Of a stretch of DNA of 64,000 nucleotides, positions 5,072-54,197 are shown one piece after another (the first letter of the stretch is position 1; each line of letters starts with the position of its first letter). Origin of the DNA: Pseudomonadota bacterium. GTDB lineage: Bacteria > Pseudomonadota > Gammaproteobacteria > Acidiferrobacterales > UBA6901. Position numbers and translations under genes: made by a program. The notes beneath the pieces are model-generated. The model searched no databases. It worked only from the letters and a program-made list of their open reading frames with translations, and was not told the origin of the DNA. Location of the stretch: NCBI GenBank assembly GCA_027364845.1, contig DAHXOO010000005.1:35198-99197 (forward strand). The letters run 5' to 3'.

Positions 5072-5138
5072 TTCGGGTCCGATCTTCAGTGCGTTTGCAT
5101 CACGATCATGCAGCCGGAGAATCAACGCAGCGACCCCA

Positions 5139-6972: not shown

Positions 6973-6989
6973 ACACTTCCCAAAAGTGT
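6973..6989. promoter_or_regulatory. candidate operator: inverted repeat ACACTT-N5-AAGTGT upstream of the NrtR-like gene
   Basis: Perfect 6-bp arms, about 25 nt upstream of the ATG at 7014, in the pbpG/nrtR divergent region. It does not clearly match the NrtR consensus I remember. Confidence 0.25.
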
Positions 6990-7013
6990 CTTTTATACAC
7001 CAATGGCCGTACA

Positions 7014-25100: not shown

Positions 25101-28100
25101 TCAGAGCAGAACCTGTTCCAATCCGCCACTGCGCACGCGTTCGACGAAATGTTGCTGCCAGTCTGTCCCCAACCTGTGGTTCGCCAGTTCGACAACGATG
25201 TAGTCCGTGTCGAGACCCGTTTCGTCCTGGTATCGTGATAGACCCTGGACGCAGGCTGGGCACGAGGTCAGTATTTTCATGCCGGCGCCGGGTGCTTCAT
25301 GCTTCCCGGGAGGCTGCTCGGTTGCGCGATGCAGTTCCTCAAGTTTACGGAATCTGACTTGGTCCGCGATGTCGGGGCGCGCGATGGCGAAGGTTCCGGC
25401 TTCGCCGCAGCAGCGGTCGGACAGAAGCACTTCCTGTCCCATCAGTTTCGAGGCGACGTTCACAGGGTTGTAGGTCTTCATCGGCGTATGGCAAGGGTCG
25501 TGGTACAGGTAGCGCATTCCGCTGACGCCCATCAGGTTTACGCCCTTCTCCATCAGGTACTCATGTATATCCAAAAGACGGCATCCGGGAAAAATCGCAT
25601 CAAACTCGTACTTGAGCAGCTGATCCATGCAGGTGCCGCAAGAAACGATTACGGTCTTGATGTCGAGGTAGTTCAGGGTGTTGGCGACGCGGTGGAACAG
25701 CACGCGATTGTCGGTGGTTATCTTCGACCCCTTGCGTTCGTCGCCGGCGGAGAGTTGCGGATAGCCACAGCACAGATAGCCGGGCGGCAGGACAGTTTGA
25801 GCGCCTACTTCATAGAGCATCGCCAGCGTGGCTAGCCCGATCTGGCTGAACAGCCGTTCTGATCCGCATCCGGGAAAATAGAACACTGCATCCGAGTCTT
25901 CGTTGATGCGAGCAGGGTCGCGCAATATCGGTATGGTCTTGCTGTCTTCGATTCCCAGCAGTGCGCGCGTGGTCATGGACGGGAGGCTGCCGGGCATCGG
26001 CCTGCGTACGAAGTTGATTATCTGTGTGGGGATCGGAGTGTGCCCGGTGGTTGCCTCGGGTGGTCTGCTGTTGTGCAGCACGCCGATACGCTTTACAAAA
26101 TGGTAGGCCATGCGCTGCGCACCATAACCCCACTCGATGAGCAGCTTGCGCAGCAGTCTGATCGTAGTCGGGTCGGTGGCGTTTAGGTACGCCATGGACA
26201 GCCAGGTCGCAGGATTCGGGCTGCGCTTGCCCTTGTCCTTGAGAATTCTGCGCATGCGAATTGACACGTCGCCGAAATCTATATTGACCGGGCAGGGGCT
26301 CAGGCATTTGTGGCAGATCGTGCAGTGGTCGGCGACGTCATTCATCGCTTCGAAATGCCGCAGGGAGATGCCGCGGCGGGTCTGCTCCTCGTAAAGGAAG
26401 GCCTCGATGATCAGACCGGTTGCCAGGATTTTATTGCGCGGAGAGTACAGCAGGTTCGCCCTGGGTACGTGGGTGCTGCACACCGGCTTGCATTTTCCGC
26501 AGCGAAGGCAGTGACGTATATCGTCGTTAAGAGCGCCAAGTTCGCTTTCCTCCAGTATGATCGCCTCCTGCTGGAGCAGGCGCAAGGATGGAGTATAGGC
26601 GCGCTCTAGCCCAGATCCCGCCAGCAACTTACCCCGGTTGAAGTTGCCGTCTGGGTCGATCTCGTGTTTGTATCGTGCAAACGCTTCGATCGAAGCGTTG
26701 TCGAGATACTGGATCTTGGTAATGCCTATGCCATGCTCCCCGGATATCACTCCTCCGAGCGTCAGCGCGAGAGCCATGACGCGCGCGACGATGCGATCGG
26801 CCTCCTGAAGCATTTCGTAGTCGTTGGAATGGACCGGGATATTGGTGTGGACGTTACCGTCACCGGCATGCATATGAGTCGCTACGAACAGCCGCCCGTT
26901 TCGCACCTGCAAATGGATCGCATCGAGCTGGCGGTGCACCGGCGAGAACTCAAGGCCTCCGAAAATCTGCTTCAAGGGGCGTTCGACTTCCGCGCGATAA
27001 GAGATCCGCTGGTCACGCCGCAGCAGCACCTGAGCCACGGTTTCGCCCGGCTGTGCCGACGTCGGAAGATCTGTGCCGAGAAGGTTTCCGACGGCTGCTA
27101 TCGTCCGGTCGAGCGCGCCGAGGATGGATGACCAGCGTGCATGCACCCGGTCCAGCAACTCCAGAGCAGCGGTCTTCTTGTCGCTGAGGATTGCAGTCGC
27201 CTCATGGCTTGTCTCGTAGTCGGCAGCCGGAGGCGGAACATCTGCAAGATTCTGCAAATAGGCGCGGACCGCTTCGATAATGCGCAGCTTGTTGGAGATG
27301 GACTGTTCGATGTTGATACGTTCGATGCCCGCGGCATAGTCAGCCAGGCGGTCGAGCGGTATCACCACGTCCTCGTTGATCTTGAAAGCGTTGGTGTGCT
27401 TGGCAATTGCCGCCGTGCGGGAACGGTCGAGCCAGAATCGACGTCTGGCCTCCGGGCTTACAGCGATGAACCCCTCCGCCCCGCGTGCATTGGCCATGCG
27501 CACTACGGCAGATGCGGCTGTAGCCACTGCCACCTCGTCGTCACCCGCTACATCGACGAGCAGCACCATCTTCGGGCGCCCACGACGCGCGGCCTTGGTG
27601 GCATAACCCACCGCGCTCAGGTAGCGCTCGTCCAGGTGTTCAAGACCGGAAAGTGACACGCGCGCGTACCCATCAAGGTAATTCTTGGTTTCAACGATGG
27701 CGGGAACAGCTTTGCCGAGGTCGTGGCCGAAGAACTCGAGGCATATAGTGCGCAGATAGGTCGGCATGCGGTGCAGGATAAACACCGCCGAAGTGATCAG
27801 GCCGTCACAACCTTCTTTCTGCACCCCGGGGAGGCCCGCGAGAAATTTGTCTGTTACGTCCTTCCCGAGCCCGATCTTGCGGAAGGAACTTCCCGGGACG
27901 GACAGCACACGCGGCGCCCCCAGCGGGGTGCGGCCATCCTGCTCGTAGCGTGTGATGCGGAACAGGACCTCCTCCTGCTCATGAATCTTTCCCAGGTTGT
28001 GATTCAGCCGCGTCACCTCCAGCCAGCGTGCATCCGGTGTTACCATGCGCCATGACACCAGATTGTCGAGCGTGGTACCCCAGAGCACCGCTTTTTTTCC

Positions 28101-28937
28101 TCCGGCATTCATCGCGACGTTGCCGCCGATCGTGGAGGCATCCTGAGATGTCGGATCGACCGCAAAGCTGTAGCCGCTCTCTTCCGCAAGCTTTGCGACA
28201 CTTAGGGTGATTACCCCAGCCTGCGCCCGGACCACAGGAGTGGGCGATGCAACCCCCTCGAGCTGGCGGATTTCGACAGGCCCAAGCTGGTCGAGCTTTT
28301 CGGTGTTGATTATCACCGATTCAGCGTGTAGGGGAACCGCCCCGCCGGTGTAGCCGGTACCTCCACCGCGCGGAATGACAGTTAACCCGAGCTCTATGCA
28401 GGCCCGGACGATGAGCACCGTTTCTTCCTCACTGTCCGGATATACGACCGCCAGCGGATATTCGACGCGCCAGTCAGTGGCATCCGTGACATGAGACACG
28501 CGCGCGAGTCCACTGAAATCCACATTGTCGCGACGAGTCAATCGCGCAAGGTGTTTGCGCAGGCGCCGGCGCCACTCACGTTGACGCGGAAACCAGTTCT
28601 CAAATTCGCGCACTGATTCGCGTGCGCGCTCCACCAGCGCGAGCGTCAACGGATTGCCGTCAGCGCGCCCACTGATCTGGTCCAGGCGGTGGTGCAGGGC
28701 GTGAACCAGCGACTCGCGCCGCTTCCGGTTCTCCAAAAGGTCATCCTGGATGTAGGGGTTGCGGTGGATGACCCACATGTCTCCTAGGACCTCGAAAAGC
28801 ATGCGTGCGGAGCGCCCAGTGCGGCGGCTGCCACGCAGCTCGTTGAGGGTTTCCCACATCGCATCCCCGAGGTATCGGATGACGATTTCCCGATCGGAAA
28901 AGGAAGTGTAGTTGTAGGGGATTTCGCGGATTCGCAT
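25101..28937 (-). CDS. DUF3683 + FAD-binding (GlcD-like) + Fe-S/CCG (GlcF-like) fused oxidoreductase
   Basis: About 1278 aa. N-terminus [20 protein letters not shown] domain [12 protein letters not shown], two ferredoxin-type Cys clusters ([23 protein letters not shown]), C-terminal CCG-type Cys repeats. Confidence 0.85.
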
Positions 28938-29451
28938 AAGGCCAGGGCCTGTGGAACGGCGCCAATTTTTCTGGAGGTGCAGTATCCATATTAGCATGTA
29001 CTTCTGGATTTTCCTGATTGGCGAAGAGCGTGTCGGTCAGGTCGGTGTTCTTGTCCACCGGTTCCTGTGGGGTCTGTCTGAATGCCGGGTCTCCAATGTG
29101 CACTGTTGGCCAAATCAATGGGTTATGCCGGACCTTGCCATCATTATTTTTTCCTGGTCCGATTCAGCCCCGGCTGTTGCGGGGCACTTCCTTTTTCCCG
29201 GCCGGCGAAACGGATATCCACCCGCTTTTGCATGCGGCAATGTCCCGTGGGTGGCCGATGAGCTTGTCGCTGGAGCGCGGAAGGCGACGGCACGTGTTGG
29301 TACCAGCATGACAACCGCGCAAAGATGGTATGCGATGAGGAGTAAAGTCACCGGATGTCGTAGCGTCGGCGGATTTTGACTTGGGTCAATGCATCATTGC
29401 ACCGCAGGCGCCTATGCTTTTTTCTAGCGGTAGACATGGAGAGAATGAGCC

Positions 29452-31487: not shown

Positions 31488-32555
31488 TCAGCCCAGGTCC
31501 CGGGAGTACCGCTCGGCGCGTTCAAGGTAATCGCGTGCTGCGGCCGACCACTTCATCGTATCCCGGACTTCGGGGTCAAGGACGTGCCAGACCGCAATCT
31601 TACAGCGAAAACAGGCCCAGCAGCTCTTGTAGAAGTTCAGCAGCGCTGGCGGAGGATGGTCGGCGCTAATGTTGCCGTAGATTTCGAAGAACAGTCGTCC
31701 GACCTGCGCAGCGCCGAGGCGCTCGCACTCCATGGACAAGAATGCGAGCTCATCGGCAGAATCGAGGATGCGGAAGTCGCGGTTGAATTCCAGCCGGTCG
31801 ATGATCACTGGCTCCGGAACGAGGCAGATATGCTCCGGTCGCAGGTCGCCGTGCGCTTCGATGATTTTATTGTGAACTGCGCGCTCGTCGACGAGTGCCT
31901 CTCGGGTTTTCAGGAACTGGTGCTGGAATGCGGCGATGCGCTCCACCTGCGGTCCGGACAGCGCATATTCCGGGCGTAAAAGTTCGCGGCAGGTGTCGTC
32001 GACCCTGTCGCGCAGGCGGCGGCGATACTGGGCGTATTCCATCGGAACCGGGTGGGCCTGCTGGTAGAGGCGGGGCAGGCGCTCGGCTGCCAAGTGTGTT
32101 TCGGCTTCGGGGATTGCGCAATTTCGTATAGCATGGTCAAGAAACCGTTCCGCCGGCAAGAGTCGCATCTTTACCAGCCAGTCAGCCGCCGGACCGTCAC
32201 CGCCAAGCTGCAGTTGGCCAGCCGCGCTTGCCGTGAGTGGGATCGTCTCGAGATATACGCCCGGAGCCAATGGTCGATTGAGCTCAACTTCAGCCTCGCA
32301 GTTGCGGCGCCTCAGTTCGATGGAACTGAAATCCAAAAAATCGCGGCGCACCGGCTTCTTGAGCTTGTAGGCGTGTGTGTCGGTGAGAAATACCCACGAC
32401 ATGTGGGTCTCGAGCGCGTAAACTTGCGTTGGATGTTCCGGGTAGGCATCCGGGCGGGAAAGGAACGCGACCTTGGCGGCTGTCTGGATTTCCGTGTTAC
32501 CGCGATTTCTGGAATTGGGCGCCATGATTATGAGCCAATCTTGCAGCAAACTCAC
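31488..32555 (-). CDS. phosphotransferase (APH/kinase-like fold) family protein
   Basis: ETHMSWVFLTDTHAYKLKKPV..., HGDLRPEHI catalytic-loop-like motif and IDRLEF (DxxE). Start uncertain (GTG 32555 or ATG 32525). Confidence 0.6.
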   Translation of the reverse strand: MSLLQDWLIIMAPNSRNRGNTEIQTAAKVAFLSRPDAYPEHPTQVYALETHMSWVFLTDTHAYKLKKPVRRDFLDFSSIELRRRNCEAEVELNRPLAPGVYLETIPLTASAAGQLQLGGDGPAADWLVKMRLLPAERFLDHAIRNCAIPEAETHLAAERLPRLYQQAHPVPMEYAQYRRRLRDRVDDTCRELLRPEYALSGPQVERIAAFQHQFLKTREALVDERAVHNKIIEAHGDLRPEHICLVPEPVIIDRLEFNRDFRILDSADELAFLSMECERLGAAQVGRLFFEIYGNISADHPPPALLNFYKSCWACFRCKIAVWHVLDPEVRDTMKWSAAARDYLERAERYSRDLG

Positions 32556-36178: not shown

Positions 36179-37477
36179 CTAACGTGCGCATGTGCGAAAC
36201 CCCGCGAAGATGTCGTTTCGATCGGGCGTATAAAAATTGCGCCATGAATTCCACACCAGACGCGCCGGGGTCGCCCAGCTTCCACCACGCAGGACCTTGC
36301 GTGTTCCGAACCACTGCTCGGAATAGTCGCGGTAAGGGTCGGGAGAAAAACCGGGATAGGGCTCAAAGGTGGATGCGGTCCATTCCCAGACGTTGCCGAT
36401 CATCTGTCGGCAGCCGAAAGCGCTGTCGCCCTGTGGCAGCGCCGCGACGTCAATGCTGGTGAGCGCGCGGCCATTCAGATTGGCATGAGTTTCGGTCGGG
36501 GGTTCGTTTCCCCAGGGATAACGGCGTTTCCGTGTACCATCCACGTGGCCACCCGCTACCTCGCAGGCTGCCGCCATTTCCCATTCAGCCTCGGTAGGAA
36601 GCCGCCGCTCTGCCCATCGACACCAGGCCTGAGCTTCGTGCCAGTTCACGTGCATCACCGGCGCGTGCGGTGCCAGCACAGTCCACCGGTCGAAGCGACG
36701 CATCTCCCAGTCAGCGCCGTTCCTACGCCAGTACTTTGGTGCTTCCATGCCGGCTTGCATGCGCCATTCCCATCCGGGGTTGTCCCAGAACTCGCGTCGG
36801 TGGTAACCGTGATCATCGACGAAGCTGGCGAATTCCATGTTGGTTACCGGTGCCCGTGCTATCCGGAATGGCGCCAGTTCCACCGGGTGTGCCCACTTCT
36901 CGTTGTCGAATACGAAGCTCCGGGTCGGCGCAGCGCCGAGCAGGAAGCGGCCACCTGGAACATCCAGATCTCCCGGCAACGGTCCGTCCGACATCGATTT
37001 CGCAAAAGCTCCAGCCGGCGCTGGGTAACCCAATGTCTGGCGCATGTAGGTGAATGCTTCCGTATGCATGTCCTGGTGGAAAATGACGAGCAGGTAAAAG
37101 TATGCATCCTTTTCCGGGACCGAATTCCCGTGGCCACGCAAGCGCTGGCCCAGTGTGTCCTTCACTGCCTGCAGATATGCGAGGGTATCGGCGACCGATG
37201 GCAAGGGCAGGTCCCAGCGCCGGTCGTGGGCGATTGCGGAGGAGTCATACAGAGAATCGGCCGCGATCATCAGTGGAGTGCGCCGGTCCAGATTGCGCAG
37301 AACCCAGTATTCATTGAACCACGCCAGATGTCCGACTTCCCAGATCGGCGGATTCACAATAGGCAGACGCGGGCCGAGCATCTGATCCGGGCTGAGGTCT
37401 GTGATCAGGCGCAGGGTGCGCGCGTGCGCATCGTCGAGATGCGCGAGAAGTTCTGCCGCTGTGACGAAATTCGCCAT
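36179..37477 (-). CDS. senA: EgtB-family non-haem-iron enzyme (DinB_2 + FGE-sulfatase domains); by context a selenoneine synthase SenA candidate
   Basis: 432 aa. DinB-type His ligands (WEVGHLAWFNEYW; FHQDMHTEAF = HxxxH). C-terminal FGE/SUMF1 fold (WEWT..., VLRGGSWAT, FRTCAR). Divergent neighbour of a SenB-like GT and close to selD. Confidence 0.65.
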   Translation of the reverse strand: MANFVTAAELLAHLDDAHARTLRLITDLSPDQMLGPRLPIVNPPIWEVGHLAWFNEYWVLRNLDRRTPLMIAADSLYDSSAIAHDRRWDLPLPSVADTLAYLQAVKDTLGQRLRGHGNSVPEKDAYFYLLVIFHQDMHTEAFTYMRQTLGYPAPAGAFAKSMSDGPLPGDLDVPGGRFLLGAAPTRSFVFDNEKWAHPVELAPFRIARAPVTNMEFASFVDDHGYHRREFWDNPGWEWRMQAGMEAPKYWRRNGADWEMRRFDRWTVLAPHAPVMHVNWHEAQAWCRWAERRLPTEAEWEMAAACEVAGGHVDGTRKRRYPWGNEPPTETHANLNGRALTSIDVAALPQGDSAFGCRQMIGNVWEWTASTFEPYPGFSPDPYRDYSEQWFGTRKVLRGGSWATPARLVWNSWRNFYTPDRNDIFAGFRTCAR

Positions 37478-37491
37478 ATACTTTAAAGTAT
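37478..37491. promoter_or_regulatory. perfect 14-bp palindrome ATACTTTAAAGTAT in the 41-bp senA/senB divergent spacer
   Basis: Abuts the senA-like start codon. A TACAAT -10-like hexamer (37498-37503) follows towards the senB-like gene. Confidence 0.4.
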
Positions 37492-37518
37492 GTTCGATAC
37501 AATGTCCCTGCGACTTCC

Positions 37519-38466
37519 ATGCGCATTCTGATTGTGACGCCGGCGCCGCGCGGATCGCGCTCCGGAAACCGCACAACCGCGCTCCGCTGGGCCAGAATCC
37601 TCAGAGCCGAGGGCCACCGGGTTTCGGTCACGGTCGGGTACGACGGTGCTCCGGCAGATCTGCTGGTTGCCCTGCATGCCTGGCGCAGCGCAGCTGCGGT
37701 GCAGCACTACCGGGAACGCCATCCGTTCAGGCCATTGATTGTAGCACTGACGGGCACGGACCTTTATCGCTTCCTGCACACCGACCGCGAGATCACGTGC
37801 CGCTCCATGGAGCTCGCTGACCGGATTGTGGTTCTGCACGAGGCCGCAATTGGTACCGTTCCTGAGCCGCTGCGCCACAAGGTGCGGGTGATTCTGCAAT
37901 CGGCGGAAACGCCGCCCAAGAGAAAGCCATCGCTAGGGAGCTTTGATATTTGTGTGATCGGGCATCTGCGTGATGAAAAGGACCCGTTGCGTACAGCCTA
38001 TGCGGTGCGCGACCTTCCGCCGCAGTCGCAGGTGCAGGTGCTGCATCTGGGGAAGGCGCACACCGATGCCTGGGCGCAGGCAGCACACGAGGAGATGGCG
38101 CGAAATCGGCGATATCACTGGCTCGGTGAAGTTCCGTTCCGGCAGGTGCGGCAGGTGTTTTCGCGCAGCCGACTTATGGTGCTGTCATCGCGCATGGAGG
38201 GGGGCGCCAACGTGATCTCGGAGGCCGTGGTGGCCGGGGTGCCAGTGGTCGCCTCGCGCATTGACGGATCGGTGGGCCTGCTTGGCCCCGACTATCCGGG
38301 ATATTATCCGACCGCAGATACGGCAGCGCTCACCGAAATGCTATTGCACGCGGAGCGTGACCCGGCCTTTTATTCGCGTCTGCAGGGCGCCTGTGCACTG
38401 CGTGCGCTGCTATTTGATCCGAAACGTGAGCAGCAGGCATGGCACGACGTACTGGCCGGGTTGTAG
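37519..38466 (+). CDS. senB: GT-B glycosyltransferase, TIGR04348/SenB-like selenosugar synthase candidate
   Basis: 315 aa. MRILIVTPAPRGSRSGNRTTALRWA N-terminus and GT4-like EGGANVISEAVVAGVPVV. Sandwiched between the EgtB-like and SelD genes. Confidence 0.6.
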   Translation: MRILIVTPAPRGSRSGNRTTALRWARILRAEGHRVSVTVGYDGAPADLLVALHAWRSAAAVQHYRERHPFRPLIVALTGTDLYRFLHTDREITCRSMELADRIVVLHEAAIGTVPEPLRHKVRVILQSAETPPKRKPSLGSFDICVIGHLRDEKDPLRTAYAVRDLPPQSQVQVLHLGKAHTDAWAQAAHEEMARNRRYHWLGEVPFRQVRQVFSRSRLMVLSSRMEGGANVISEAVVAGVPVVASRIDGSVGLLGPDYPGYYPTADTAALTEMLLHAERDPAFYSRLQGACALRALLFDPKREQQAWHDVLAGL

Positions 38467-38486
38467 CAGACGGGTAATTTCCTTCA

Positions 38487-40751
38487 TCATAGGATAAGTG
38501 TTACCGGCGCGGCTGTGTCGCTCGGCTCCAGGACCTGTCCTATGATGGCACTTTGGATGTAGCCCAGCTGGTGCAGATCGGCGAGGCAGGCGGCGGCGTT
38601 TGCTTCGGGGATGGACGCCAGCAAGCCTCCGGCCGTCTGAGGATCAAACAGCAGCGGGTAGCATGCATGTGTGGCGGTGGCCTCGAGGTTGCGGATAGCC
38701 CGCCGCAGACGGATGTTCTCCGGCTGTAGCGAACTGAAAATTCCCCGAGTCAGGGATTCGATGGCTCCTTCCAGAACTGGAAGGCTGTCGAGCTCTACTT
38801 CAACGTCGACCTGTGAGGGGCGGGTCATCTCCATGAGATGACCCAAAAGCCCGAAGCCGGTGATATCGGTGCAGGCATGCGCTCCGTGGCGTAACAGGCA
38901 GTCGGCGGCGGTGCGGTTTGACTGCAGCATCGATTCCAGCGCCGCATCTATCCAGCGCCCCTTGGCCTGATGGCGCATGTCAGCGGCGAACAGGGTACCG
39001 GTGCCCAGGGCTTTCCCAAGAATGAGCCGGTCTCCCGGACGCATGCCGCTCTTGCGAAGAAGCCGGCTGCGCTCCGCCAAGCCATTCACGCTCAGTCCGA
39101 AGGCAAGCTCGGCGCCCTCACTCGTATGTCCGCCAACGAGCGCGGTTCCAGATTCCTCGAGTGACACGGCGGCGCCGGCCATCAGTTCGTAGAGCGTCTG
39201 TTCGATCTTGGCCTCGGAACCGAACGGAACGCTGGCAATCGCGAGGGCGGACTGTGGCTGCGCGCCCATCGCGTAGATGTCGCCGAGGCTGTGGTTGGCG
39301 GCGATGTTGCCGAACAGATAGGGATCGTCGACGATGGCGCGGAAGAAATCCACTGTGTGCACCATAACCTGTCCGGCTGGGACTTCGACGACTGCAGCGT
39401 CATCCGCATCGCGCATGCCGATGAGGATATCAGCGCGCGATATTATCGGGATGCGCGCCAGCACGCGGGTAAGCACCGTGCTGCCGATCTTGGAGCCGCA
39501 TCCACCACAGCGCATCGCCAACTCGGATATTTCACGTATCGCCACGCCGTCGTTCCGGTGACCCGGCACGACCGTGCCAGCGTTCATTCCATTCAGCGGC
39601 GGTAGATCCCGATAACGCTGCATCCAGCGCCGGTCTATCCGGTCCTTCCAGCGCCATACGAGCGCCCCTTCCAGTGTCCACGGCCCGCGCGAAGCGACCG
39701 CGCGGCGGTCCCCAGTGCTGATCAGAGCGAGAAACCGGCGCTGCGGAAAGAACGCGCTGAGCGTTTCTCCCCTTGATGCGTGCCGCAAGTTTGCGGCCAG
39801 CACCGGTCCTTGGCGAACCGCCATCACGCCGGATTTCGCACGTAGATGATTGCGCATGGTCGCGATGTCGCCCGCGGCGAAAACGCCCGGATGAGAAACG
39901 GACTGGAGGCAGTCGTCAACTTCGATGAAGCCGCCAGGCGTGGCCGCGAGCCCGGTGCGTGTAATCCAGCCTGGTGCTGCCGCATTCGTTGCCCAGATGA
40001 GCGCATCGTATGGAAAGACCAGGTTAGAGCCCGAATGCGTGGCGAGAAGATGTTCTGCCGTGATTTCGTGCACGCGATGCGCGAGATGGACGGATACGTT
40101 TCTTTCGGAAAGGATGCGGGCGAATTTCCGCCTTACGCGCTCGTGGTGCGTGGGAAGAATTTGCGGTGCTTCCGAAAACAGGTGGAACTGTACCGGCGCG
40201 GTGGCACAGCTCGTTGCGATGCGATGCTGCAGCGAAAGCGTGAGTTCCACCCCTCCGGCGCCACCTCCGACCACCGCAATGCGAAATGAACGCGTGGCAT
40301 CGCGTACGCGATGCTCGATTGCGTTCCATCCGATGAGAAAACGGTCGACAGGCTTTACCGGAAGCGAGTACTTTGCCGCTCCCGGAATGCCGGCTTCGTC
40401 CGGCGTCGAACCGATGTCGATGGAAAGAACGTCATAGGGGACCTCTGGGCGTCCACGGCACAATACCCGATTATTTTTCAGGTCCAGCCCGATCATCTCG
40501 TCGTGATATAGACGGCAGCCCGCGAAGTGTGCGAGTGGGCGCAGGTCGACATGAGCCTCATCGAAGTCGTAGTGGCCGGCGATGTAGCCCGGCAGCATGC
40601 CGGAATACGGCGTATGGATGTCGCGTGCAATGAGAGTCAGGCGCACACCTGGCTCGGGCCGCATTCCGAAAGCCTTAAGTACGGCTACGTGGCTATGTCC
40701 GCCACCGACGAGTACCAGGTCTTTGCGAACAATATATGGTTGACCTTGCAT
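38487..40751 (-). CDS. selD: bifunctional FAD-dependent pyridine nucleotide-disulfide oxidoreductase (NDH-2-like) / selenide, water dikinase SelD (SenC-like)
   Basis: 754 aa. Two Rossmann loops (LVLVGGGHSHV, IAVVGGGAGGVE) in the N-terminal half. SelD half has active-site CGGCGSKIG (Cys, not Sec), DAAVV, and AIR-synthase-like GGHTSEG. Confidence 0.85.
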   Translation of the reverse strand: MQGQPYIVRKDLVLVGGGHSHVAVLKAFGMRPEPGVRLTLIARDIHTPYSGMLPGYIAGHYDFDEAHVDLRPLAHFAGCRLYHDEMIGLDLKNNRVLCRGRPEVPYDVLSIDIGSTPDEAGIPGAAKYSLPVKPVDRFLIGWNAIEHRVRDATRSFRIAVVGGGAGGVELTLSLQHRIATSCATAPVQFHLFSEAPQILPTHHERVRRKFARILSERNVSVHLAHRVHEITAEHLLATHSGSNLVFPYDALIWATNAAAPGWITRTGLAATPGGFIEVDDCLQSVSHPGVFAAGDIATMRNHLRAKSGVMAVRQGPVLAANLRHASRGETLSAFFPQRRFLALISTGDRRAVASRGPWTLEGALVWRWKDRIDRRWMQRYRDLPPLNGMNAGTVVPGHRNDGVAIREISELAMRCGGCGSKIGSTVLTRVLARIPIISRADILIGMRDADDAAVVEVPAGQVMVHTVDFFRAIVDDPYLFGNIAANHSLGDIYAMGAQPQSALAIASVPFGSEAKIEQTLYELMAGAAVSLEESGTALVGGHTSEGAELAFGLSVNGLAERSRLLRKSGMRPGDRLILGKALGTGTLFAADMRHQAKGRWIDAALESMLQSNRTAADCLLRHGAHACTDITGFGLLGHLMEMTRPSQVDVEVELDSLPVLEGAIESLTRGIFSSLQPENIRLRRAIRNLEATATHACYPLLFDPQTAGGLLASIPEANAAACLADLHQLGYIQSAIIGQVLEPSDTAAPVTLIL

Positions 40752-40831: not shown

Positions 40832-41509
40832 CTACTTGATCTTCAGCAGTTCAATGTCAAAAATCAAGGTCTCGTTCGGCCCGATGACACCGTCTGCGCC
40901 GCCAGCGCCGTACGCGAGATTGGCGGGGATGTAGATTCTCCACTTGGATCCAACGCGCATTAGCGGGAGCGCCTGCTGCCAGCCTTGGATTACCCCACTG
41001 AGCGGGAATGTGGCCGGCCTTCCACGCTTGTACGAGCTGTCGAACACAGTGCCGTCGAGCAGGAGTCCTTGATAGTTGGCGACGACAGTATCGCTGATCT
41101 TCGGCTTGGGACCCTTGCCTTCGGTGATTACCTTGTACTGCAGTCCGCTGGGAAGTGTGACGACGCCCGGTTTTTTCCCGTTTTCGGCGAGAAACTTGGA
41201 TCCAGTTTCCAAGTTCTTCTGCGCCAGGGTGGAGTAGTCAGCCTGGCGCTTGTGCTGGTAGGCAACAACCGCTGCGCGCATCTGGTCGCTGTTGAGCCTT
41301 GCGGGTTTCCCGTTCTCCGCGTCCTCAATCGCCTGCAACAGGGCCTTGGGATCGATATCCATGTGTTGACGCTTGAGGTTCTGCCCGATCTTGTACCCGA
41401 CCACATAGCTGAGGCGCTGTTTGTCGGTGGTCAGTTTTGGCGAAGTCGCGGCGCAGCCGCCCATGAAAACTGCGACCAAAGTGAAGGTAAGTGGAACCCG
41501 GATGCTCAT
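40832..41509 (-). CDS. FKBP-type peptidyl-prolyl cis-trans isomerase, lipoprotein (Mip/FklB-like)
   Basis: Lipobox FMGGC. N-terminal dimerisation helix region and C-terminal FKBP core (FDSSYKRGRPATFPL...GWQQAL...WRIYIP..LAYG). Confidence 0.9.
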   Translation of the reverse strand: MSIRVPLTFTLVAVFMGGCAATSPKLTTDKQRLSYVVGYKIGQNLKRQHMDIDPKALLQAIEDAENGKPARLNSDQMRAAVVAYQHKRQADYSTLAQKNLETGSKFLAENGKKPGVVTLPSGLQYKVITEGKGPKPKISDTVVANYQGLLLDGTVFDSSYKRGRPATFPLSGVIQGWQQALPLMRVGSKWRIYIPANLAYGAGGADGVIGPNETLIFDIELLKIK

Positions 41510-44968: not shown

Positions 44969-45587
44969 GTTCTTTCTTCTTCTGGTTGCGGCCGGGTTTC
45001 GGCCGAGGTCGCAGAGTTTTCCCAAACTGACGCGTGGTCTGGTACAGCCGGTACAGGCTTTATATTAAGATTATAGCTGTGCGGAGTCAGAAACCACGGG
45101 TCAGCATCACTCTCCCTCCCCGTGAGACATCGGGCTCCAGATCCCGCCCGAGCTGCGCACAGAGCAGTTTTGTGCCAGTTTCGAGCGTACCCTTTGAAAG
45201 GTGGCCGCCCAGCCGAGGTAAAGTACCTGTGACGTTCCGTCCAGCTGGGGTTTCGCGCCGCCAAGGTCTGCATGTGTGAGCTATGCGACCAGAGGGGGCC
45301 GGTGAATTTTCCCGTGTGCACGCTTGCGCGTGAATATTATCCGACAGCGCCAGTCCGCTTGACAATGCTCCGAGGCTGGATTGTCGGGCGAAATAGCGGC
45401 AACATGGATCTATGGATCAGATCATGGCTATTCCTGGCTGCGGAGGTGGCGCGATGCCGGTGGGTGGGGCCGCGACCTTCAACGCGACTTTGGATGAAGG
45501 AGCGAAGGAACCATTTTCGCCAGGAACTGTCGGATCGACGAGACCCCTAATTAATTAAATCCGAAGTTTTTTTTGAGGAACACGAAC

Positions 45588-45983
45588 ATGGATTACTCCA
45601 CGGCAGAAAATCAGATTGCTCAGATCCAACAGCAGTCCCAGACTGCGATTCAGAACATGCAGCAGTTCGCACAGAAACTGCGTGCGGCAGCCCCGGACGA
45701 GACGACCGGGCGCGAATGGGCGCTGGATATGCGGGAGATCGCCTTGGCAATGCAAAGCCAGAACCAGGCCATGGTGGGTCTGGTCAACCAGATGGCGGAA
45801 TACATCAAGACGTTGGAAGCGCAGATGGCCACACATCCCAGCCCGAGTGTGCAGCCGCGCGGTTGGGCATCGCAGCCATCGGGGGGCGGAGGGTTCTGGG
45901 GCAGCGTCACCAGCGGGCTGGGAGTCGGCGCCGGATTTGCCGTGGCAAACGACCTGGTCGGCGACCTCTTCAACATGTTTTAG
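45588..45983 (+). CDS. hypothetical protein: Gln-rich coiled-coil N-terminus, Gly-rich hydrophobic C-terminal tail (DUF2076-like tail)
   Basis: GAGGAA SD before ATG 45588. C-terminus GGGGFWGSVTSGLGVGAGFAVANDLVGDLFNMF. Confidence 0.55.
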   Translation: MDYSTAENQIAQIQQQSQTAIQNMQQFAQKLRAAAPDETTGREWALDMREIALAMQSQNQAMVGLVNQMAEYIKTLEAQMATHPSPSVQPRGWASQPSGGGGFWGSVTSGLGVGAGFAVANDLVGDLFNMF

Positions 45984-46185
45984 TCTTCGCCGGACCGACC
46001 CGGTCTGCAACCCGCAGCGGTATCCTGCCTTGCCTGAAGCGACATCCTGGTGCGCTGTCGGCAAGCGCAGCAGCCGTCCCCGGTGTTCATCGCACAGTTT
46101 CCCGACCTGTGCGCTGTCCTCCGGAATGATTCCCGGCTCCTTGCTGCGCAGGTGTGAATTGCGCGCGGTTCGGGAATGAGGGATC

Positions 46186-46575
46186 ATGTCTTATTCTCCT
46201 GATTGGCGGTCAAGACATTCCATGGACAAGCCGAAGATAATCACGGCCTTGCCGCAATGTCGCTACAAGCTCGGCGGATTCGTCATCACGGTGTTGGGTG
46301 AGGTCGAGAGCGGGGATGGCGTCGCTTATCGCTACATTGCCGCCGTTATCACGGAAGGCGATCCGGAGCCGGGTCTGTATATTACGGCCGAGCGCGAGGC
46401 CAGAGGTCTCGGGCGCAAGGGCATGCACGTTATGCGCATAATCATGCGCGATGGTGCGCAAGTCGTCGGTTCCTCCGACCGCTGGGGTGATCTCGATCTA
46501 TTCGTTACCGATGTGCTGGAAGTCGTGTCGCGGGTCCTCGACCTGCAGGATGAGGAACCCTATCTGCTGAGTTGA
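46186..46575 (+). CDS. hypothetical protein
   Basis: 129-aa ORF with coding-like composition. No family recognised. An alternative start is ATG 46222. Confidence 0.5.
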   Translation: MSYSPDWRSRHSMDKPKIITALPQCRYKLGGFVITVLGEVESGDGVAYRYIAAVITEGDPEPGLYITAEREARGLGRKGMHVMRIIMRDGAQVVGSSDRWGDLDLFVTDVLEVVSRVLDLQDEEPYLLS

Positions 46576-47516: not shown

Positions 47517-48890
47517 TCACTTGACTGCCGGGGGTGGCGTGGCTGCAGTTGTGGCGGAGTCTGAAAGTGCCAGATCCTTCAAGGTCTGGCCATGCACGGA
47601 ATCCTCCAGAGCCCGGTCCATGTTCTGAATCAGTCGATCCACATACGGTTCTTGCGGGAACCTGCGGCTCAACGGAACTTCATCCTCGCCCGCACTGTTT
47701 ACCGCGTCAACCAGTGTTTTTAGCGACACAATCTCGGGGGACCTAGCAGGAAGGTAGCATTCCGGCTCGCCGGCTGAACGCACCACGAGCCCGCGCCGCT
47801 CGAGCAGGTTCAGCATGGTTGCAACGACCGCCTCGGGAATGCCGGCCTGTTTGGCGAGACTGTCACGGCTGCAGCCCGCTCCGCTTCCGTAGTGATTGCG
47901 GCCGATCCAGGCCATGAGCATGAGTGCAAGCCGCTCCTGTCCCCGGGCGCTCAGACGCAATTCCCGCCGATACAGCGTGAGAGATTCGGGGTGCTGGTGA
48001 TAGAAGGCGATGCTGGCCCCCACGAGCAGAATCAACCAGCTCAAATAAAGCCAGATCATGAACATCACCACAATGGCAAAGCCCGAGTAAATCGCGCTGT
48101 AGTGCGTCGAGCCCACGACAAACGATGCGAAAAGCCAGCCGCCAGCTTCCCACAGGGTGCCTGCGATGACGCCCCCGGTCACGGCCGATCTAAGTCGTAC
48201 CCTGGTGTTCGGAATGAACACGTAGACAAAGGAGAAGGCCGAGATTACAAGCACGTACGGTGCCAGCGCGCCGACGATCCGCATTACCGCGCCTAGCGGC
48301 TCAGTTTGCGCCAGATCTCTTACGATCGATGCGTTCATCAGCGTGGCGGTCAGGCCCATTGCTGAGAACACCAGTACCGGTCCGACGGTCAGAACGCTCA
48401 GATACTGGCTGAATCTTTGGACAAGTGGCCTCGTCTGGTCCAGCCGCCAGGTGTAGTTAAAGGCGCGCTCCACTTTTTGGACCAGTGACGCAACGGTGTA
48501 GATCAGCAGACCCAGGCCCAGCGCACCGAGCACACCAACCTTGATGTGCTCGACGAACCCGATGATGCGCGCGCTGATTACGCCGCTCTTATCGCCGAGC
48601 GGTGCCAGGAAATGGAGCAGTAACGGCCGGATTGCATTATGGACCCCGAATGCCTTGAGTACGGAAAAACTGACGGCAAGCAGCGGTACTAACGATAGCA
48701 GGGTGGTATACACAAGGCTCATCGCCTGAAGCGTGAGCTGCCCGTCGGTAACATCGTGTGTTACGACATGGATGACGCGCAACAGCCATAGAGTCCTCCG
48801 GCGCAGTGGCGAAAGCGACGCCAAATCAGCATTCCAGAGGGACTCGTAGAGAGTGGTGCGAAGTCTGCCGAAATCCATGATGGCGCACAT
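47517..48890 (-). CDS. YihY/BrkB family inner-membrane protein with C-terminal winged-helix-like extension
   Basis: LTLQAMSLVYTTLLSLVPLLAVSFSVLKAFG and six TM segments. Start ATG 48890 or 48878. Confidence 0.8.
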   Translation of the reverse strand: MCAIMDFGRLRTTLYESLWNADLASLSPLRRRTLWLLRVIHVVTHDVTDGQLTLQAMSLVYTTLLSLVPLLAVSFSVLKAFGVHNAIRPLLLHFLAPLGDKSGVISARIIGFVEHIKVGVLGALGLGLLIYTVASLVQKVERAFNYTWRLDQTRPLVQRFSQYLSVLTVGPVLVFSAMGLTATLMNASIVRDLAQTEPLGAVMRIVGALAPYVLVISAFSFVYVFIPNTRVRLRSAVTGGVIAGTLWEAGGWLFASFVVGSTHYSAIYSGFAIVVMFMIWLYLSWLILLVGASIAFYHQHPESLTLYRRELRLSARGQERLALMLMAWIGRNHYGSGAGCSRDSLAKQAGIPEAVVATMLNLLERRGLVVRSAGEPECYLPARSPEIVSLKTLVDAVNSAGEDEVPLSRRFPQEPYVDRLIQNMDRALEDSVHGQTLKDLALSDSATTAATPPPAVK

Positions 48891-49499
48891 CCTCTGCCGT
48901 CTGTCGGGATTGTTATTGGCGTGTCTCGTGGATTGCAGGCAGGCCGATACTAGATAATATACAATGGCGACGCGGGCAAGCATAACTGCGCAGTTGATGC
49001 GTTTGGTAGCGGTGTTGCCGTTTGCGCGCATACACACCGCAGGTGCGGTTCCTCGCTTGTTCATTGCCCGGTCGTCGGGTAGGCATTCCCGGACACCATT
49101 TCACGGAATCAATTGGCGTACCGCCGGTCTATAGAAGTTAAGAAGTTATGGGACTGAAGGTCTGTGACAGGGCTGTTTTTGACCCAGGTGTTCTGGCGCG
49201 CCTTCGACAAAGGGGTTCCCGCGGCAGAGAATGGGTTGTCGAGTTTTTTGGAGGTAGCTGAGACAATGAAACTGCGAAATCGATTTGCGACCATGTCGCG
49301 CGTCGTGCGTCTGCGGCAAAAGCAGCGTGCGGACGCGCAGGCGCCCGGGCCGAACCCGGGCAAGCGCCTACGGGTACCGTGGGAGTCGAAGAAAGACTGA
49401 TGAGGTCGATCCCTGGTGGGCGTGGCTGACTATGCAGCCATCCCGCAATGGTGGGGACGTGGGGATTGACAGTGACGACTGCCGCGGGGCGCGTATGCG

Positions 49500-50957
49500 C
49501 TAATCGTATTGTTGCCGCCGCTCCGCGGCTTCGGGCTTGATTTCCCCAAAACCGCCGTTGTTGCAGGAGAATGTTACTCTTTTTCCGGAGATGGTAGTTT
49601 CCAGCAGCACCTGGCGACCCCACAGGCGGTATACATAGCCGAGAGTTTTTTCCAGATACTCGCGTTGCAGGTCGCGCCCGTCGTGTTCGTGCCTCAATAG
49701 CAGCACTCGATTATGGTCGAAGTCGGCATCCACGATGCGGATGACCGGCACGGTCGCCATTCCCACATTTCGCAGGAGTGAATCGCGCACCGACTCCCAG
49801 TGATCGGTATCCGATATCTGCGAAATCACCATTTGGCCTTGCTCGTGGCGGTACTCAAACAGGTCCATCTCACGCATCAGCTGTTCCGTTAGAAACCGTC
49901 GCAGAAAGGATACGTCGCGATCGGTTTCCCGTACCTCGAAGATCTTTTCCCTGCGGTCCGATACGATCGGATGTTCGGCGGCGCCGGACGGCTGCACGTT
50001 GTCGTAGCGCCGCCGTATGTCCTCCCAAAGTTTGAATCCGAGGTAGTAGGGATTGAGTCCGCCAGGATGGGAGCGCACAACCTGGTTGTGATGAATCAGG
50101 AACTCCAGATGGAGATCCTCCGGCAGCTCCAGACTGTTCATGATCTGATGATGCCAGTAGCTGGCCCAGCCCTCGTTCATGATCTTGGTCTCGATCTGGG
50201 GAATGAAATACTGGGACTCATCATGGACGATGCGCAGCAGATCCTTTTGCCATTCGCCTATGTAGGGTTGGTACTCGGCAATGAACAGCAGAATGTCCTC
50301 TTCCGGTTCCAGCGGTAGCTTGTTGAGATCCGGTGCATGATATTCACGCGGCTTGTGAATTCCCGCATACGGATCCCTGGGAGGTATCGCATCTACCAAC
50401 GCGCGTTCCCGCTGCTCATTGCGTGAAAGCTTCCTGATGGCCGTGTCGCGCCGGCACTGCAGCGACAGGGCATGGGCAGCATCCAGGATCTCCTCCACCC
50501 GCTGTTGACCAATGGACGGGTCTTCGACATAACGCCGGACACGGTCGGCGCGCAGCTTGAAGTGCGAAATTGCCAGCTCCGGACGTGTGTTGCGGAACGT
50601 GAAATTGTTCCTGAAGAAGTCGTTGTGCCCGTAAACATGCGCAATCGTCAGAATCTGCAGACACAGAGAATTGTCGCGCATCAGGTAGGCGAGGGAAGGT
50701 GTGGCGTTGATCACCATTTCGTACGGCAGTCCGGAAACACCATAGCTGTACAGGGTCTTGAGCTTCTCGTATGCCTTGCCGAATGACCAGTGCGGGTAGT
50801 GTGCAGGCATGCCGTGATAGGCCATGCAGCCGAGCATCTGCTCGTGGTCACATACCTCAAATTCCTGGGAAAAGCACTCCAGGCCGAACTCTCGTACTTT
50901 CTCTTGGATGCGGGCATCCCAGTATTCCAGATCCCGAATCGTCCAGTTGCGGGCCAT
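49500..50957 (-). CDS. SpoVR family protein (YcgB-like)
   Basis: 485 aa. MAYHGMPAHYPHWSFGK and IAHVYGHNDFF blocks. Last gene of the prkA triad. Confidence 0.9.
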   Translation of the reverse strand: MARNWTIRDLEYWDARIQEKVREFGLECFSQEFEVCDHEQMLGCMAYHGMPAHYPHWSFGKAYEKLKTLYSYGVSGLPYEMVINATPSLAYLMRDNSLCLQILTIAHVYGHNDFFRNNFTFRNTRPELAISHFKLRADRVRRYVEDPSIGQQRVEEILDAAHALSLQCRRDTAIRKLSRNEQRERALVDAIPPRDPYAGIHKPREYHAPDLNKLPLEPEEDILLFIAEYQPYIGEWQKDLLRIVHDESQYFIPQIETKIMNEGWASYWHHQIMNSLELPEDLHLEFLIHHNQVVRSHPGGLNPYYLGFKLWEDIRRRYDNVQPSGAAEHPIVSDRREKIFEVRETDRDVSFLRRFLTEQLMREMDLFEYRHEQGQMVISQISDTDHWESVRDSLLRNVGMATVPVIRIVDADFDHNRVLLLRHEHDGRDLQREYLEKTLGYVYRLWGRQVLLETTISGKRVTFSCNNGGFGEIKPEAAERRQQYD

Positions 50958-50971
50958 CTCGCCTCCCTGTG

Positions 50972-52159
50972 CTACGGGTAGTCCACCGTCTCGGCGGCGC
51001 GCTCACGCAATAGCAGCTGTTTGAATCCCGGCCAGATATCCTCTTTGTTCTCGATCATAAGCGCATGGAAGTTCGTGGCCTCTATCTTCTCGAACAACTC
51101 CAGCAGCGTATCGCCATAGGATCCGGAATTGAGCGGCTTGATCTCGCCATATCCAAACAAATTGCAGACCTCAGCCAGTTCCTGCGCCGCCCTGAGGGCG
51201 GCCGGGTTGTCCTGGCTCCAGTTGTCCCCGTCCGAGCAGTGGAAGGCATATACATTCCACAGCGACGGGTGAAATCGTTCCTTGATGATCTCCAGGGCTT
51301 TCTGGTATCCCGACGATATTATGGTTCCACCGGATCCACCCTTGGTGAAGAACTCCTCTTCGTTTACTTCCCGGGCCTGCGCATCGTGCGCAATGAACAC
51401 GACTTGAACATTGTTGTAGCGGGTCCTAACAAACTGATACAGCAGGAAAAAGAAGCTGCGCGCGAGATATTTCTTCATGGTCTCCATTGATCCGGAGGTG
51501 TCCATGATGCACAGAACAACGGCGTTTGACTGGAACCGCAGATCACGTACGATGTGGCGGTATTTGAGGTCGTCGCGATGAAAGGGGAAACGTCCCGCCC
51601 CGAGCTCACTGGCGGGGTGCGCGTGCGCCGCCAGCTTACGACGTATGCGCGCCATCGCCGTACGTCTTTTATCGAGGTGGGCACGCACGCCCACCCGCCG
51701 GAATCCCTTGCGCTTGCGCAAGCTTTCTACTGGAACTTCACGCAGTTTTTTGCGTTCCATGTCGGGCAGTTCCAGATCCTCGAACATGATGTCGGCCAGT
51801 TCCTCAAGCGTGATTTCCGTTTCATAATAGTCGACGCCTGGCTGGCTGCCGGCTTTGCCGCCGGACTGCGCTCCTTCGGTCTCCGCAATCACTTGTCCCG
51901 GTTGACTGTCTCCCTGCCCGCTGCCGACTCCCGGGGATTCTTCGCCGAATATGAAGTGGTACTCGCGTACGCCGCGAATCGGAACCTTGATGATCTTGTC
52001 GCGGCTCTGGCCGATGATTGATTCCTCGGCGACGATGTCAGCCACGTTCTCGCGGATGGCCTCGCGCACTTTCTGACGATGGCGTAGGCGGTCCCCAGCG
52101 CTGCGATCGGAGCGCAACGCATCGGACTCAGAATATGAGCGAAATAGCGATCCCGTCAT
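50972..52159 (-). CDS. YeaH/YhbH family protein (DUF444, vWA-like)
   Basis: 395 aa. DRLRHRQKVREAIRENV N-terminus and MDTSGSM MIDAS-like motif. Confidence 0.9.
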   Translation of the reverse strand: MTGSLFRSYSESDALRSDRSAGDRLRHRQKVREAIRENVADIVAEESIIGQSRDKIIKVPIRGVREYHFIFGEESPGVGSGQGDSQPGQVIAETEGAQSGGKAGSQPGVDYYETEITLEELADIMFEDLELPDMERKKLREVPVESLRKRKGFRRVGVRAHLDKRRTAMARIRRKLAAHAHPASELGAGRFPFHRDDLKYRHIVRDLRFQSNAVVLCIMDTSGSMETMKKYLARSFFFLLYQFVRTRYNNVQVVFIAHDAQAREVNEEEFFTKGGSGGTIISSGYQKALEIIKERFHPSLWNVYAFHCSDGDNWSQDNPAALRAAQELAEVCNLFGYGEIKPLNSGSYGDTLLELFEKIEATNFHALMIENKEDIWPGFKQLLLRERAAETVDYP

Positions 52160-52181
52160 GCCCTGGTCTCCGTAACCGCAC

Positions 52182-54113: not shown

Positions 54114-54197
54114 AACCGACCTCCTCATTGATTCTGCATTCAATTACCGTTTGTAGTCACGTTCCCCCTTTGTGGACCTGTTTTTGTGGATCTTGTG

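Follow-up and report, generated by a model that had tools for sequence, protein, structure and literature searches.

A probable selenoneine biosynthetic cluster with a fused flavoprotein-SelD in an uncultured gammaproteobacterium

Gene content and layout

Three contiguous genes, which we call senA, senB and senC, lie together on a 4.6-kb part of the window (the whole 64-kb stretch of DNA analysed here), all with intact open reading frames and in a region of unremarkable base composition whose flanking synteny is kept in the nearest relatives. The host is an uncultured gammaproteobacterium, and its nearest named relatives are Acidiferrobacterales MAGs. The features, in window coordinates, are as follows.

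36179-37477, minus strand: senA, 432 aa; matches NF041186, with a start that agrees with the NCBI gene call
37478-37518: senA/senB intergenic region, 41 bp, between divergent genes
37519-38466, plus strand: senB, 315 aa, GT-B fold; matches TIGR04348
38487-40751, minus strand: senC (Ndh-SelD fusion), 754 aa, a single uninterrupted ORF
39612-40721, minus strand: N-terminal FAD/NAD(P)H-binding oxidoreductase domain of senC, residues 11-380; TIGR03169, Pyr_redox_2
38601-39515, minus strand: SelD domain of senC, residues 413-717; TIGR00476

The first-pass annotation of this DNA had placed an EgtB-like gene, a glycosyltransferase gene and a flavoprotein-SelD gene at these positions and on these strands, and all three reading frames were confirmed. 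The longest frame available to senA is 36179-37576 on the minus strand (465 aa); since the SenA HMM match begins at its residue 39 and the NCBI gene call (P0128, 432 aa) starts from Met34, at position 37477, we place the gene at 36179-37477, with no overlap with senB. The genes senB and senC converge, with 20 bp between their stop codons.

The short gap between the divergent senA and senB presumably holds overlapping promoters. It showed no match to the sigma-70 consensus, and a scan for promoters and terminators gave nothing exceeding shuffled expectation. A perfect 14-bp palindrome, ATACTTTAAAGTAT, occupies 37478-37491 and is unique in the window. The only part of the gap conserved in the closest relatives is CCATATACT; because the palindrome itself is not conserved we do not claim it as an operator, and a regulatory role for it can at most be supposed. 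The flanking genes (MBL-fold/RNase Z-like, PLD-like, EEP, FKBP and PepN) were considered as pathway components and rejected, because they are syntenic in the closest relatives only and the MBL gene is absent even in locus L003.

Identity and active sites of the three enzymes

The product of senA scores 523.3 bits against the curated NCBIfam model for SenA (NF041186, cutoff 420) and 331.8 bits against that for EgtB (TIGR03440), under the cutoff of 360. An EgtB-family enzyme with DinB-type histidine ligands and an FGE-sulfatase domain had been recognized in the first reading, and Pfam indeed gives DinB_2 and FGE-sulfatase domains, with an iron triad of His50, His134 and His138 and a catalytic Tyr382. 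This fold, the three-histidine iron site and the tyrosine are common to the type I EgtB of Mycolicibacterium thermoresistibile (PDB 4x8b), and hercynine is the predicted acceptor of SenA as it is the acceptor of EgtB. However, His84 and Tyr416 stand where EgtB has its thiol-binding Arg87 and Asp416 (alignment to 4x8b), and the partner genes are senB and selD instead of egtA, egtC, egtD and egtE. Replacement of these two EgtB residues by His and Phe/Tyr is the published criterion for SenA (Kayrouz et al. 2022, bioRxiv 10.1101/2022.04.13.486033). The hercynine-binding residues Tyr385, Asn414 and Phe415 are also present (the motif WRNFY is encoded at 36230-36244) and are equivalent to Tyr366, Asn395 and Phe396 of Variovorax-type SenA, that is, of the enzyme from V. 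paradoxus; all residues of the window SenA were assigned from alignments to OvsA, VpSenA and MthEgtB.

The sen cluster of V. paradoxus DSM 30034 (bioRxiv 10.1101/2022.04.13.486033) is composed of the same three enzyme families as the window locus. Its SenA has the same composite motif (HHH-Y-Y-W-N-F), has His and an aromatic residue at the EgtB Arg87/Asp416 positions and shows a moderate identity of about 46% to the window SenA over aligned columns, but lacks a segment of about 55 residues found in the latter. The catalytic residues of SenB are common to both clusters, and so are the Cys and Lys of SelD, whereas V. paradoxus SenC is a stand-alone protein and the window SenC carries an N-terminal NDH-2-like domain.

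The 315-aa glycosyltransferase, assigned to the TIGR04348/SenB family in the first reading, scores 434.7 bits against that model (cutoff 300) and matches the SenB structures 8jjn and 8fbx with E=3e-55. Asn17, Thr20, His53, Asp81, Arg151, Lys154, Glu227 and Glu235 are the counterparts, in this order, of N20, T23, H58, D86, R155, K158, E231 and E239, the functional residues published for V. paradoxus SenB (PMC10891094), and every residue shown by mutagenesis to matter is conserved. The enzyme departs from the crystallised SenB at two positions adjacent to the active site: Glu153 replaces V157, which in V. paradoxus is in contact with the donor sugar's N-acetyl group (PMC10891094), and EGGANV replaces EGGAHV (H235 to N). 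Since both changes are common to all 81 SenBs of the subfamily (81/81), we regard V157E/H235N as a subfamily trait compatible with family membership. Given these departures from the characterised enzyme, the sugar donor of the subfamily could differ.

The C-terminal domain of senC scores 308.2 bits against the SelD model TIGR00476 (cutoff 125), as the earlier identification of a selenophosphate synthetase had anticipated, and its N-terminal domain 477.7 bits against TIGR03169 (cutoff 310). We ruled out that the protein belongs to the 'not SelD' family of oxidoreductase/SelD-related fusions described by TIGR04369, for which its score of 458.1 falls under the cutoff of 700; it is therefore a true SelD fusion. 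The SelD active-site loop, CGGCGSK (39489-39509), contains Cys415-x-x-Cys418 and Lys421, and Cys418 and Lys421 correspond to Cys17 and Lys20 of E. coli SelD (alignment to 3u0o). The structures nearest to the N-terminal domain are NDH-2 (4nwz, E=1.7e-18) and FSP1. Across 58 such fusions the CxxC of the SelD loop is kept without exception and the N-terminal motifs GGGHSH (residues 16-21) and GGGAGG (162-167) are conserved; the flavoprotein domain has no cysteine conserved across the set. Thus the three proteins pass curated NCBIfam cutoffs with strong matches that chance would not produce, in agreement with the senA/senB/senC gene content first proposed, and the sequence identifies the enzymes and their active-site residues.

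Fusions of this kind are well known. Ndh-SelD with a CxxC was described in 2008, and in ocean metagenomes about 40% of the Cys-type SelDs are of this form (Zhang et al. 2008, PMC2398784); it is the commonest SelD fusion (Mariotti et al. 2015, PMC4561486), and more than 8000 full-length homologues exist. The window protein has the same architecture as those in these reports, an N-terminal FAD-type NADH-dehydrogenase-like domain followed by a Cys-type SelD with CxxC, and does not differ from them in structure. Ndh-SelD also has a TIGRFAM of its own.

Related loci and alternative readings

The first-pass annotation took the locus for a rearranged sen cluster, departing from the published one in its transcriptional arrangement, its fused SelD and its lack of egtD. 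The features themselves are as it described, but a comparison with 80 species-representative genomes that contain a related SenB does not sustain the departures. The exact layout, with senA leftward, senB rightward and a fused selD leftward and convergent with senB, recurs in 33 of the 80 related loci, so 'rearranged' finds no support; in 22 more the fused selD adjoins senA, and senA and senB are divergent at every related locus with a SenA match. SelD is fused in 58/58 complete SelD reading frames of the set, the one in the window included, and 60 of the 80 loci have the fused gene in tight linkage with senB or senA; most of the others are cut contigs. The original mining by Kayrouz et al. 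relied on tigr04348 ORFs overlapping selD, which implies a co-directional pair, whereas senB and selD converge in the window and senA is divergent. Their definition of a sen cluster, an egtB homologue, tigr04348 and selD within 5 kb, is independent of orientation and covers the window locus. Likewise, egtD is usually encoded outside the cluster, with hercynine drawn from a separate egt pathway (Kayrouz et al. 2022, bioRxiv 10.1101/2022.04.13.486033), and in V. paradoxus it lies outside the core, as in the window. Because the sen clusters of related bacteria normally show this gene order, carry a fused SelD and lack egtD, we consider the locus ordinary.

The reported absence of egtD, selA, selB and selU from the 64-kb window was borne out. 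Pfam scans of 39 other ORFs detected no Methyltransf_33/EgtD, SelA, SelB, rhodanese or second AIRS protein, nor any methyltransferase family, OvsM included; a six-frame tblastn search of the window with a verified EgtD query gave no match even at E<=10; selU was likewise absent from it, and the window contains no tRNA genes, so tRNA-Sec does not occur there.

It is conceivable, if improbable, that EgtD is lacking altogether in this lineage and that its cluster ends at selenosugars, scavenges hercynine or uses another acceptor, to yield a different selenometabolite, an option that the first reading had also raised. The gene is missing not only from the window but also within 10 kb on either side in the five closest relatives, while 28 of the 80 related loci, from more distant relatives, retain a clustered egtD (verified with TIGR03438, 406 bits). 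However, the presence of egtD inside the cluster in those 28 ties the SenA/SenB/Ndh-SelD subfamily of the window to hercynine chemistry, and the fact that SenA is intact and keeps its whole hercynine-binding motif argues for selection for hercynine use. A separately encoded egt pathway is the normal source in the founding sen paper, egt and sen clusters co-occur above expectation, and a different product is disfavoured by a substrate-determining motif of the hercynine type, as in characterised SenA, and not of the OvsA type.

A second reading, which we find very unlikely, is that the fused SelD is a general selenophosphate synthetase serving selenocysteine (Sec) and/or selenouridine (SeU), its adjacency to senA and senB being secondary. 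Sec machinery was found in all genomes with extended SelDs (Mariotti et al., PMC4561486), and no second selD was seen in the window. Yet selA, selB, selU and tRNA-Sec are not found there either, and the tight linkage to senB or senA across the related loci indicates that the fused selD has a role in the pathway. Its dual use is possible and would not contradict the production of selenoneine. The older literature on Ndh-SelD considers Sec and SeU use only, whereas in the window, as in those 60 of the 80 loci, it serves as the SenC of a sen cluster.

The proposal with the least to recommend it is that the locus is an ovoselenol/5-selenohistidine (ovs) cluster, its EgtB-like enzyme being an OvsA with histidine as substrate; the missing egtD would then be accounted for. 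These clusters (OvsA/OvsM/SenB/SenC; Kayrouz et al. 2024, PMC11030361) share the senB/senC selenosugar cassette and a SenA-related non-haem-iron selenoxide synthase, they occur mostly in aquatic gammaproteobacteria, usually without egtD, and OvsA is the best PDB match of the window SenA by raw score (325 vs 275 bits). But OvsA has Met401/Gln430/Ala431 and is accompanied by OvsM, whereas the window has Tyr385/Asn414/Phe415, and the published mutation of the former residues to Y/N/F turns OvsA into a SenA. The composite motif reads HHH-Y-M-Q-Q-A in OvsA and in a genuine OvsA-type locus (L030), where SelD is unfused and distant (34% identity). The OvsA-YNF mutant also outscores wild-type OvsA against the window SenA, and this, together with the segment of about 55 residues missing in V. 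paradoxus SenA, explains the PDB ranking. A quick NJ tree groups OvsA with L030 in 100/100 bootstraps and leaves the window outside that clade; since the same tree does not settle the deep order of SenA, OvsA and VpSenA (46/100), our assignment is based on the active-site motifs instead of the tree, and on the motif evidence the OvsA identity was rejected. The published Y/N/F versus M/Q/A motif thus cleanly separates SenA from OvsA loci even where raw similarity misleads.

Proposed pathway and its significance

The locus is very probably a canonical selenoneine sen cluster, and its chemistry would be that of the characterised V. paradoxus enzymes, from which we transfer it by analogy. The SelD domain of SenC would convert selenide and ATP to selenophosphate, and the fused NDH-2-like domain would probably draw on NAD(P)H to help in providing or shielding reduced selenium at the CxxC loop. 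SenB would then combine selenophosphate with a UDP-sugar (UDP-GlcNAc is the donor in the characterised system) to form a 1-seleno-sugar, with Lys154 predicted to promote Se-P cleavage. Using Fe(II) and O2, SenA would join the selenosugar to C2 of hercynine, and the resulting selenoxide would shed its sugar spontaneously to give selenoneine. Hercynine would be supplied by an EgtD whose gene lies beyond the 64-kb window, as is usual for sen clusters.

As a known kind of cluster, the locus is on its own of little consequence; existing NCBI HMMs would name senA, senB and senC correctly. With it, one more uncultured gammaproteobacterial lineage, probably sulfur- or iron-oxidising, joins the known carriers of the selenoneine pathway, which number more than 800. 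Of wider interest is that the SenC partner in this SenB subfamily is always an Ndh-SelD fusion; we found no paper explicitly tying the fusion to a SenC role. One tentative idea, on balance rather doubtful, is that the NDH-2-like domain is dedicated to reducing selenium with NAD(P)H, or to delivering it, and so feeds selenide to the CxxC loop, and that the fused form, not the stand-alone SenC of V. paradoxus, is what gamma- and alphaproteobacterial sen clusters have as their standard SenC. If true, this would help to explain the large share of Ndh-SelD among the Cys-type SelDs of the ocean, unexplained since 2008, and selenoneine synthesis would be a major use of selenium in the sea.

Gene content and family assignment

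The three reading frames that the first-pass annotation had proposed were borne out, in coordinates and strand, by ORF positions and by concordant NCBIfam and Pfam assignments:

36179-37576, minus strand: senA, longest ORF, with the true start (Met34) at 37477
37519-38466, plus strand: senB, matching TIGR04348
38487-40751, minus strand: senC, a 754-aa Ndh-SelD fusion, matching TIGR03169 and TIGR00476

The senA product is a protein of 432 aa from Met34 (37477), the point at which the HMM match begins and with which the NCBI gene call (P0128) agrees, and there is therefore no overlap between senA and senB, whose divergent start codons are separated by 41 bp. At its other end senB converges on selD, and the two stop codons lie 20 bp from each other. 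Against the curated NCBIfam models, the senA protein reached 523.3 bits with the SenA model NF041186 (cutoff 420) and 331.8 bits with the EgtB model TIGR03440, under its cutoff of 360, and the glycosyltransferase reached 434.7 bits with TIGR04348 (cutoff 300), in agreement with their earlier reading as SenA-type and SenB-family proteins. The suggestion that SelD is fused to a flavoprotein is likewise upheld, both matches lying on the 754-aa protein: residues 11-380 correspond to the 'N-terminal to SelD' oxidoreductase domain TIGR03169 (477.7 bits, cutoff 310) and residues 413-717 to SelD TIGR00476 (308.2 bits, cutoff 125). Assignment to TIGR04369 ('fusion, not SelD') was rejected, at 458 bits against a cutoff of 700. 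The Pfam domains are DinB_2 and FGE-sulfatase in senA, Glycos_transf_1 in senB, and Pyr_redox_2, AIRS and AIRS_C in senC.

A perfect 14-bp palindrome, ATACTTTAAAGTAT (37478-37491), unique within the window, lies in the 41-bp gap between senA and senB, directly beside the senA start codon. Relatives keep only CCATATACT of this region and, as the palindrome is not conserved in them, it does not establish a regulatory element. A scan of the locus for promoters and terminators gave nothing above expectation.

In SenB, the residues whose importance has been demonstrated by mutagenesis are all kept, namely N20, T23, H58, D86, R155, K158, E231 and E239 in Variovorax paradoxus numbering. Unlike the V. 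paradoxus enzyme, which has V157 and an EGGAHV motif, the window SenB has Glu153 (37975-37977) and EGGANV, with Asn231 (38209-38211), and both variants are found in 81 of the 81 SenBs of the subfamily, including that of an OvsA-type locus. V157 of V. paradoxus SenB contacts the N-acetyl group of UDP-GlcNAc (PMC10891094), and the two variants may reflect a different sugar-donor preference in this subfamily.

Substrate type of the SenA protein

A PDB search with the window SenA ranked OvsA, the histidine-type ovoselenol selenoxide synthase, first (325 bits for 8ux5 and 315 bits for 8u41), followed by the hercynine-type SenA of V. paradoxus (275) and EgtB (274). Because of this ranking, and because organisms with ovs genes are usually without egtD, the gene for the hercynine-forming methyltransferase (Kayrouz et al. 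2024, PMC11030361), an identity as OvsA had to be resolved. Three residues determine both which substrate is used and the regiochemistry, Met401/Gln430/Ala431 in OvsA and Tyr366/Asn395/Phe396 in SenA, and an OvsA-YNF triple mutant acts as SenA (PMC11030361). The window protein carries Tyr385/Asn414/Phe415 at these positions, and over the eight positions of the composite motif it reads HHH-Y-Y-W-N-F, exactly as V. paradoxus SenA does; OvsA has HHH-Y-M-Q-Q-A, as does L030, one of 80 related loci (L001-L080) and the internal positive control for the motif method. With a Y/N/F rather than an M/Q/A motif, the window protein is rejected as an OvsA. The top rank of OvsA is due to its best entry, 8ux5, being the YNF mutant itself, and the lower rank of V. 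paradoxus SenA to its lack of a segment of about 55 residues, which splits the alignment in two. The protein also differs from EgtB, since in the alignment EgtB Arg87 and Asp416 are replaced by His84 and Tyr416, the signature that separates SenA from EgtB.

In a quick neighbour-joining tree rooted on EgtB, OvsA and L030 were monophyletic in 100/100 replicates and the window protein grouped with its five closest relatives (L001-L005) in 74/100. The deeper order of SenA, OvsA and V. paradoxus SenA had a support of only 46/100, and for this reason topology was not used for the assignment.

The L030 locus (Cocleimonas sp. MAG, 1173-7612) is a genuine OvsA-type (ovoselenol) locus: the SenA-like protein that it encodes carries M/Q/Q/A and groups with the OvsA of H. 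utahensis in 100/100 replicates, and its SelD, which is not fused, shares only 34% identity with that of the window. In L034 too SelD is distant and unfused, and no SenA lies within reach.

Locus layout and genomic surroundings

One genome per GTDB species was scanned, giving 536 confirmed SenB relatives, and SenA, SenB and the Ndh and SelD domains were placed by tblastn on the best 80 of these. The exact layout of the window, with senA and senB divergent and the fused selD convergent with senB, occurs in 33 of the 80 loci; the fused selD lies on the senA side in 22, on the other strand in 1, and on a contig ending before senA in 4, most of the remaining loci being truncated contigs. Wherever a SenA match exists among the 80, senA and senB point away from each other, and the gaps in the five closest relatives match those of the window (senA to senB, 33-38 bp; senB to selD, 19-25 bp). 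The locus, described at first as rearranged, cannot meaningfully be called so, and the published definition of sen clusters (827 examples) is the egtB/tigr04348/selD trio in any arrangement within 5 kb (Kayrouz et al. 2022, bioRxiv 10.1101/2022.04.13.486033).

Nor is the missing egtD an unusual trait, since its location outside the cluster is the stated norm (Kayrouz et al. 2022, bioRxiv 10.1101/2022.04.13.486033) and it lies inside in 28 of the best 80 loci, where it recurs at two positions; neither the window nor, within 10 kb to either side, any of its five closest relatives has it.

Between senA and selD: L007, L009, L010, L019, L020, L022, L025, L039, L045, L047, L054, L058, L062, L066
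Beyond selD: L013, L021, L026, L035, L055, L057, L064, L075, L077, L080 and others

L013 (contig JAIVTC010000119.1), labelled 'Candidatus Bathyarchaeota archaeon', has a sen cluster of proteobacterial type that includes egtD, and its SenB is 59% identical to that of the window; the contig is probably mis-binned, and horizontal transfer of the cluster is possible.

The earlier statement that the window is without egtD, selA, selB and selU holds at window scope: Pfam searches of its 39 further ORFs detected no EgtD, SelA, SelB, rhodanese/SelU or second AIRS-family protein, and a six-frame tblastn of the window with the L010 EgtD (verified by TIGR03438 at 406.5 bits, cutoff 290.9) gave no match even at E<=10. 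No tRNA gene is present anywhere in the 64 kb. These ORFs are housekeeping only, among them PRPP synthetase, Lon, PEP carboxylase, ValRS, PepA, PepN, PrkA/DUF444/SpoVR, EEP-family, PLD-like and RNase Z-like MBL-fold proteins and FKBP, and base composition is uniform over the window. Because flanking-gene synteny is limited to the five closest relatives, we consider that the sen genes lie in an ordinary chromosomal neighbourhood, none of whose flanking genes appears tied to the pathway. The nearest named relatives of the fused SelD, among the matches listed, are Acidiferrobacterales MAGs (71-80% identity). Other features of the surroundings are:

25101-28997, minus strand: 1298-aa multidomain redox protein (DUF3683, FAD-linked oxidase, 4Fe-4S dicluster, CCG domains, DUF3400)
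31488-32555, minus strand: 355-aa protein conserved in L001-L004 and L017, no Pfam or NCBIfam match
40832-41509, minus strand: FKBP-type peptidyl-prolyl isomerase gene, 80 bp upstream of senC on the same strand, an arrangement kept only in L001-L005; the two could be co-transcribed
45573-46575, plus strand: two small adjacent ORFs conserved in L001-L004, no Pfam or NCBIfam match
47517-49064, minus strand: BrkB/YihY-family membrane protein, 515 aa, C-terminal region weakly Rrf2-like (26 bits, under the cutoff of 30)
49500-54143, minus strand: complete three-gene stress-response operon, PrkA - DUF444 (YeaH-like) - SpoVR-like

The Ndh-SelD fusion and the predicted pathway

The fusion, also taken at first as a departure from the usual, proved to be common. 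The reading frame from Ndh to SelD is uninterrupted in 58 sequences, that of the window included, and among loci with a visible SelD N-terminus only the divergent L030 and L034 have an unfused SelD. A protein-database search returned at least 8000 candidate homologues, and 120 of 120 among the matches listed share the same Pfam architecture. Ndh-SelD fusions, always with CxxC, have been known since 2008 and account for about 40% of the Cys-type SelDs of the GOS ocean metagenomes (Zhang et al. 2008, PMC2398784), and they are by far the commonest SelD fusion (Mariotti et al. 2015, PMC4561486). The same hallmark is present here as C415-G-G-C418 and is kept in 58/58 fusions; the counterparts of Cys17 and Lys20 of E. 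coli SelD are Cys418 and Lys421. Among known structures, the N-terminal domain most resembles type-II NADH dehydrogenase (4nwz, E=1.7e-18) and FSP1. Its two dinucleotide-binding motifs are intact and none of its cysteines is conserved, which makes it an NDH-2-like flavoprotein and not a disulfide reductase. Our literature search found no publication tying the Ndh-SelD fusion to sen clusters.

Judged by sequence, SenC (SelD), SenB and SenA are intact, each with a complete catalytic apparatus. If the reaction steps are carried over from the characterised system, SenC would convert selenide and ATP to selenophosphate, SenB would combine selenophosphate with a UDP-sugar to give a selenosugar, and SenA would join the selenosugar to hercynine with O2, yielding a selenoxide and then selenoneine. 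Hercynine would come from an egtD outside the window, and the flavoprotein domain may supply or protect reduced selenium at the CxxC site.

Of the first-pass reading, then, the identification as a sen locus stands on family models and residues, and the rearrangement and the new product do not: the layout is a frequent one, and with a hercynine-type motif in SenA nothing in the locus points to a new product. The locus is an ordinary member of the known sen (selenoneine) clusters, and its architecture is not unusual.
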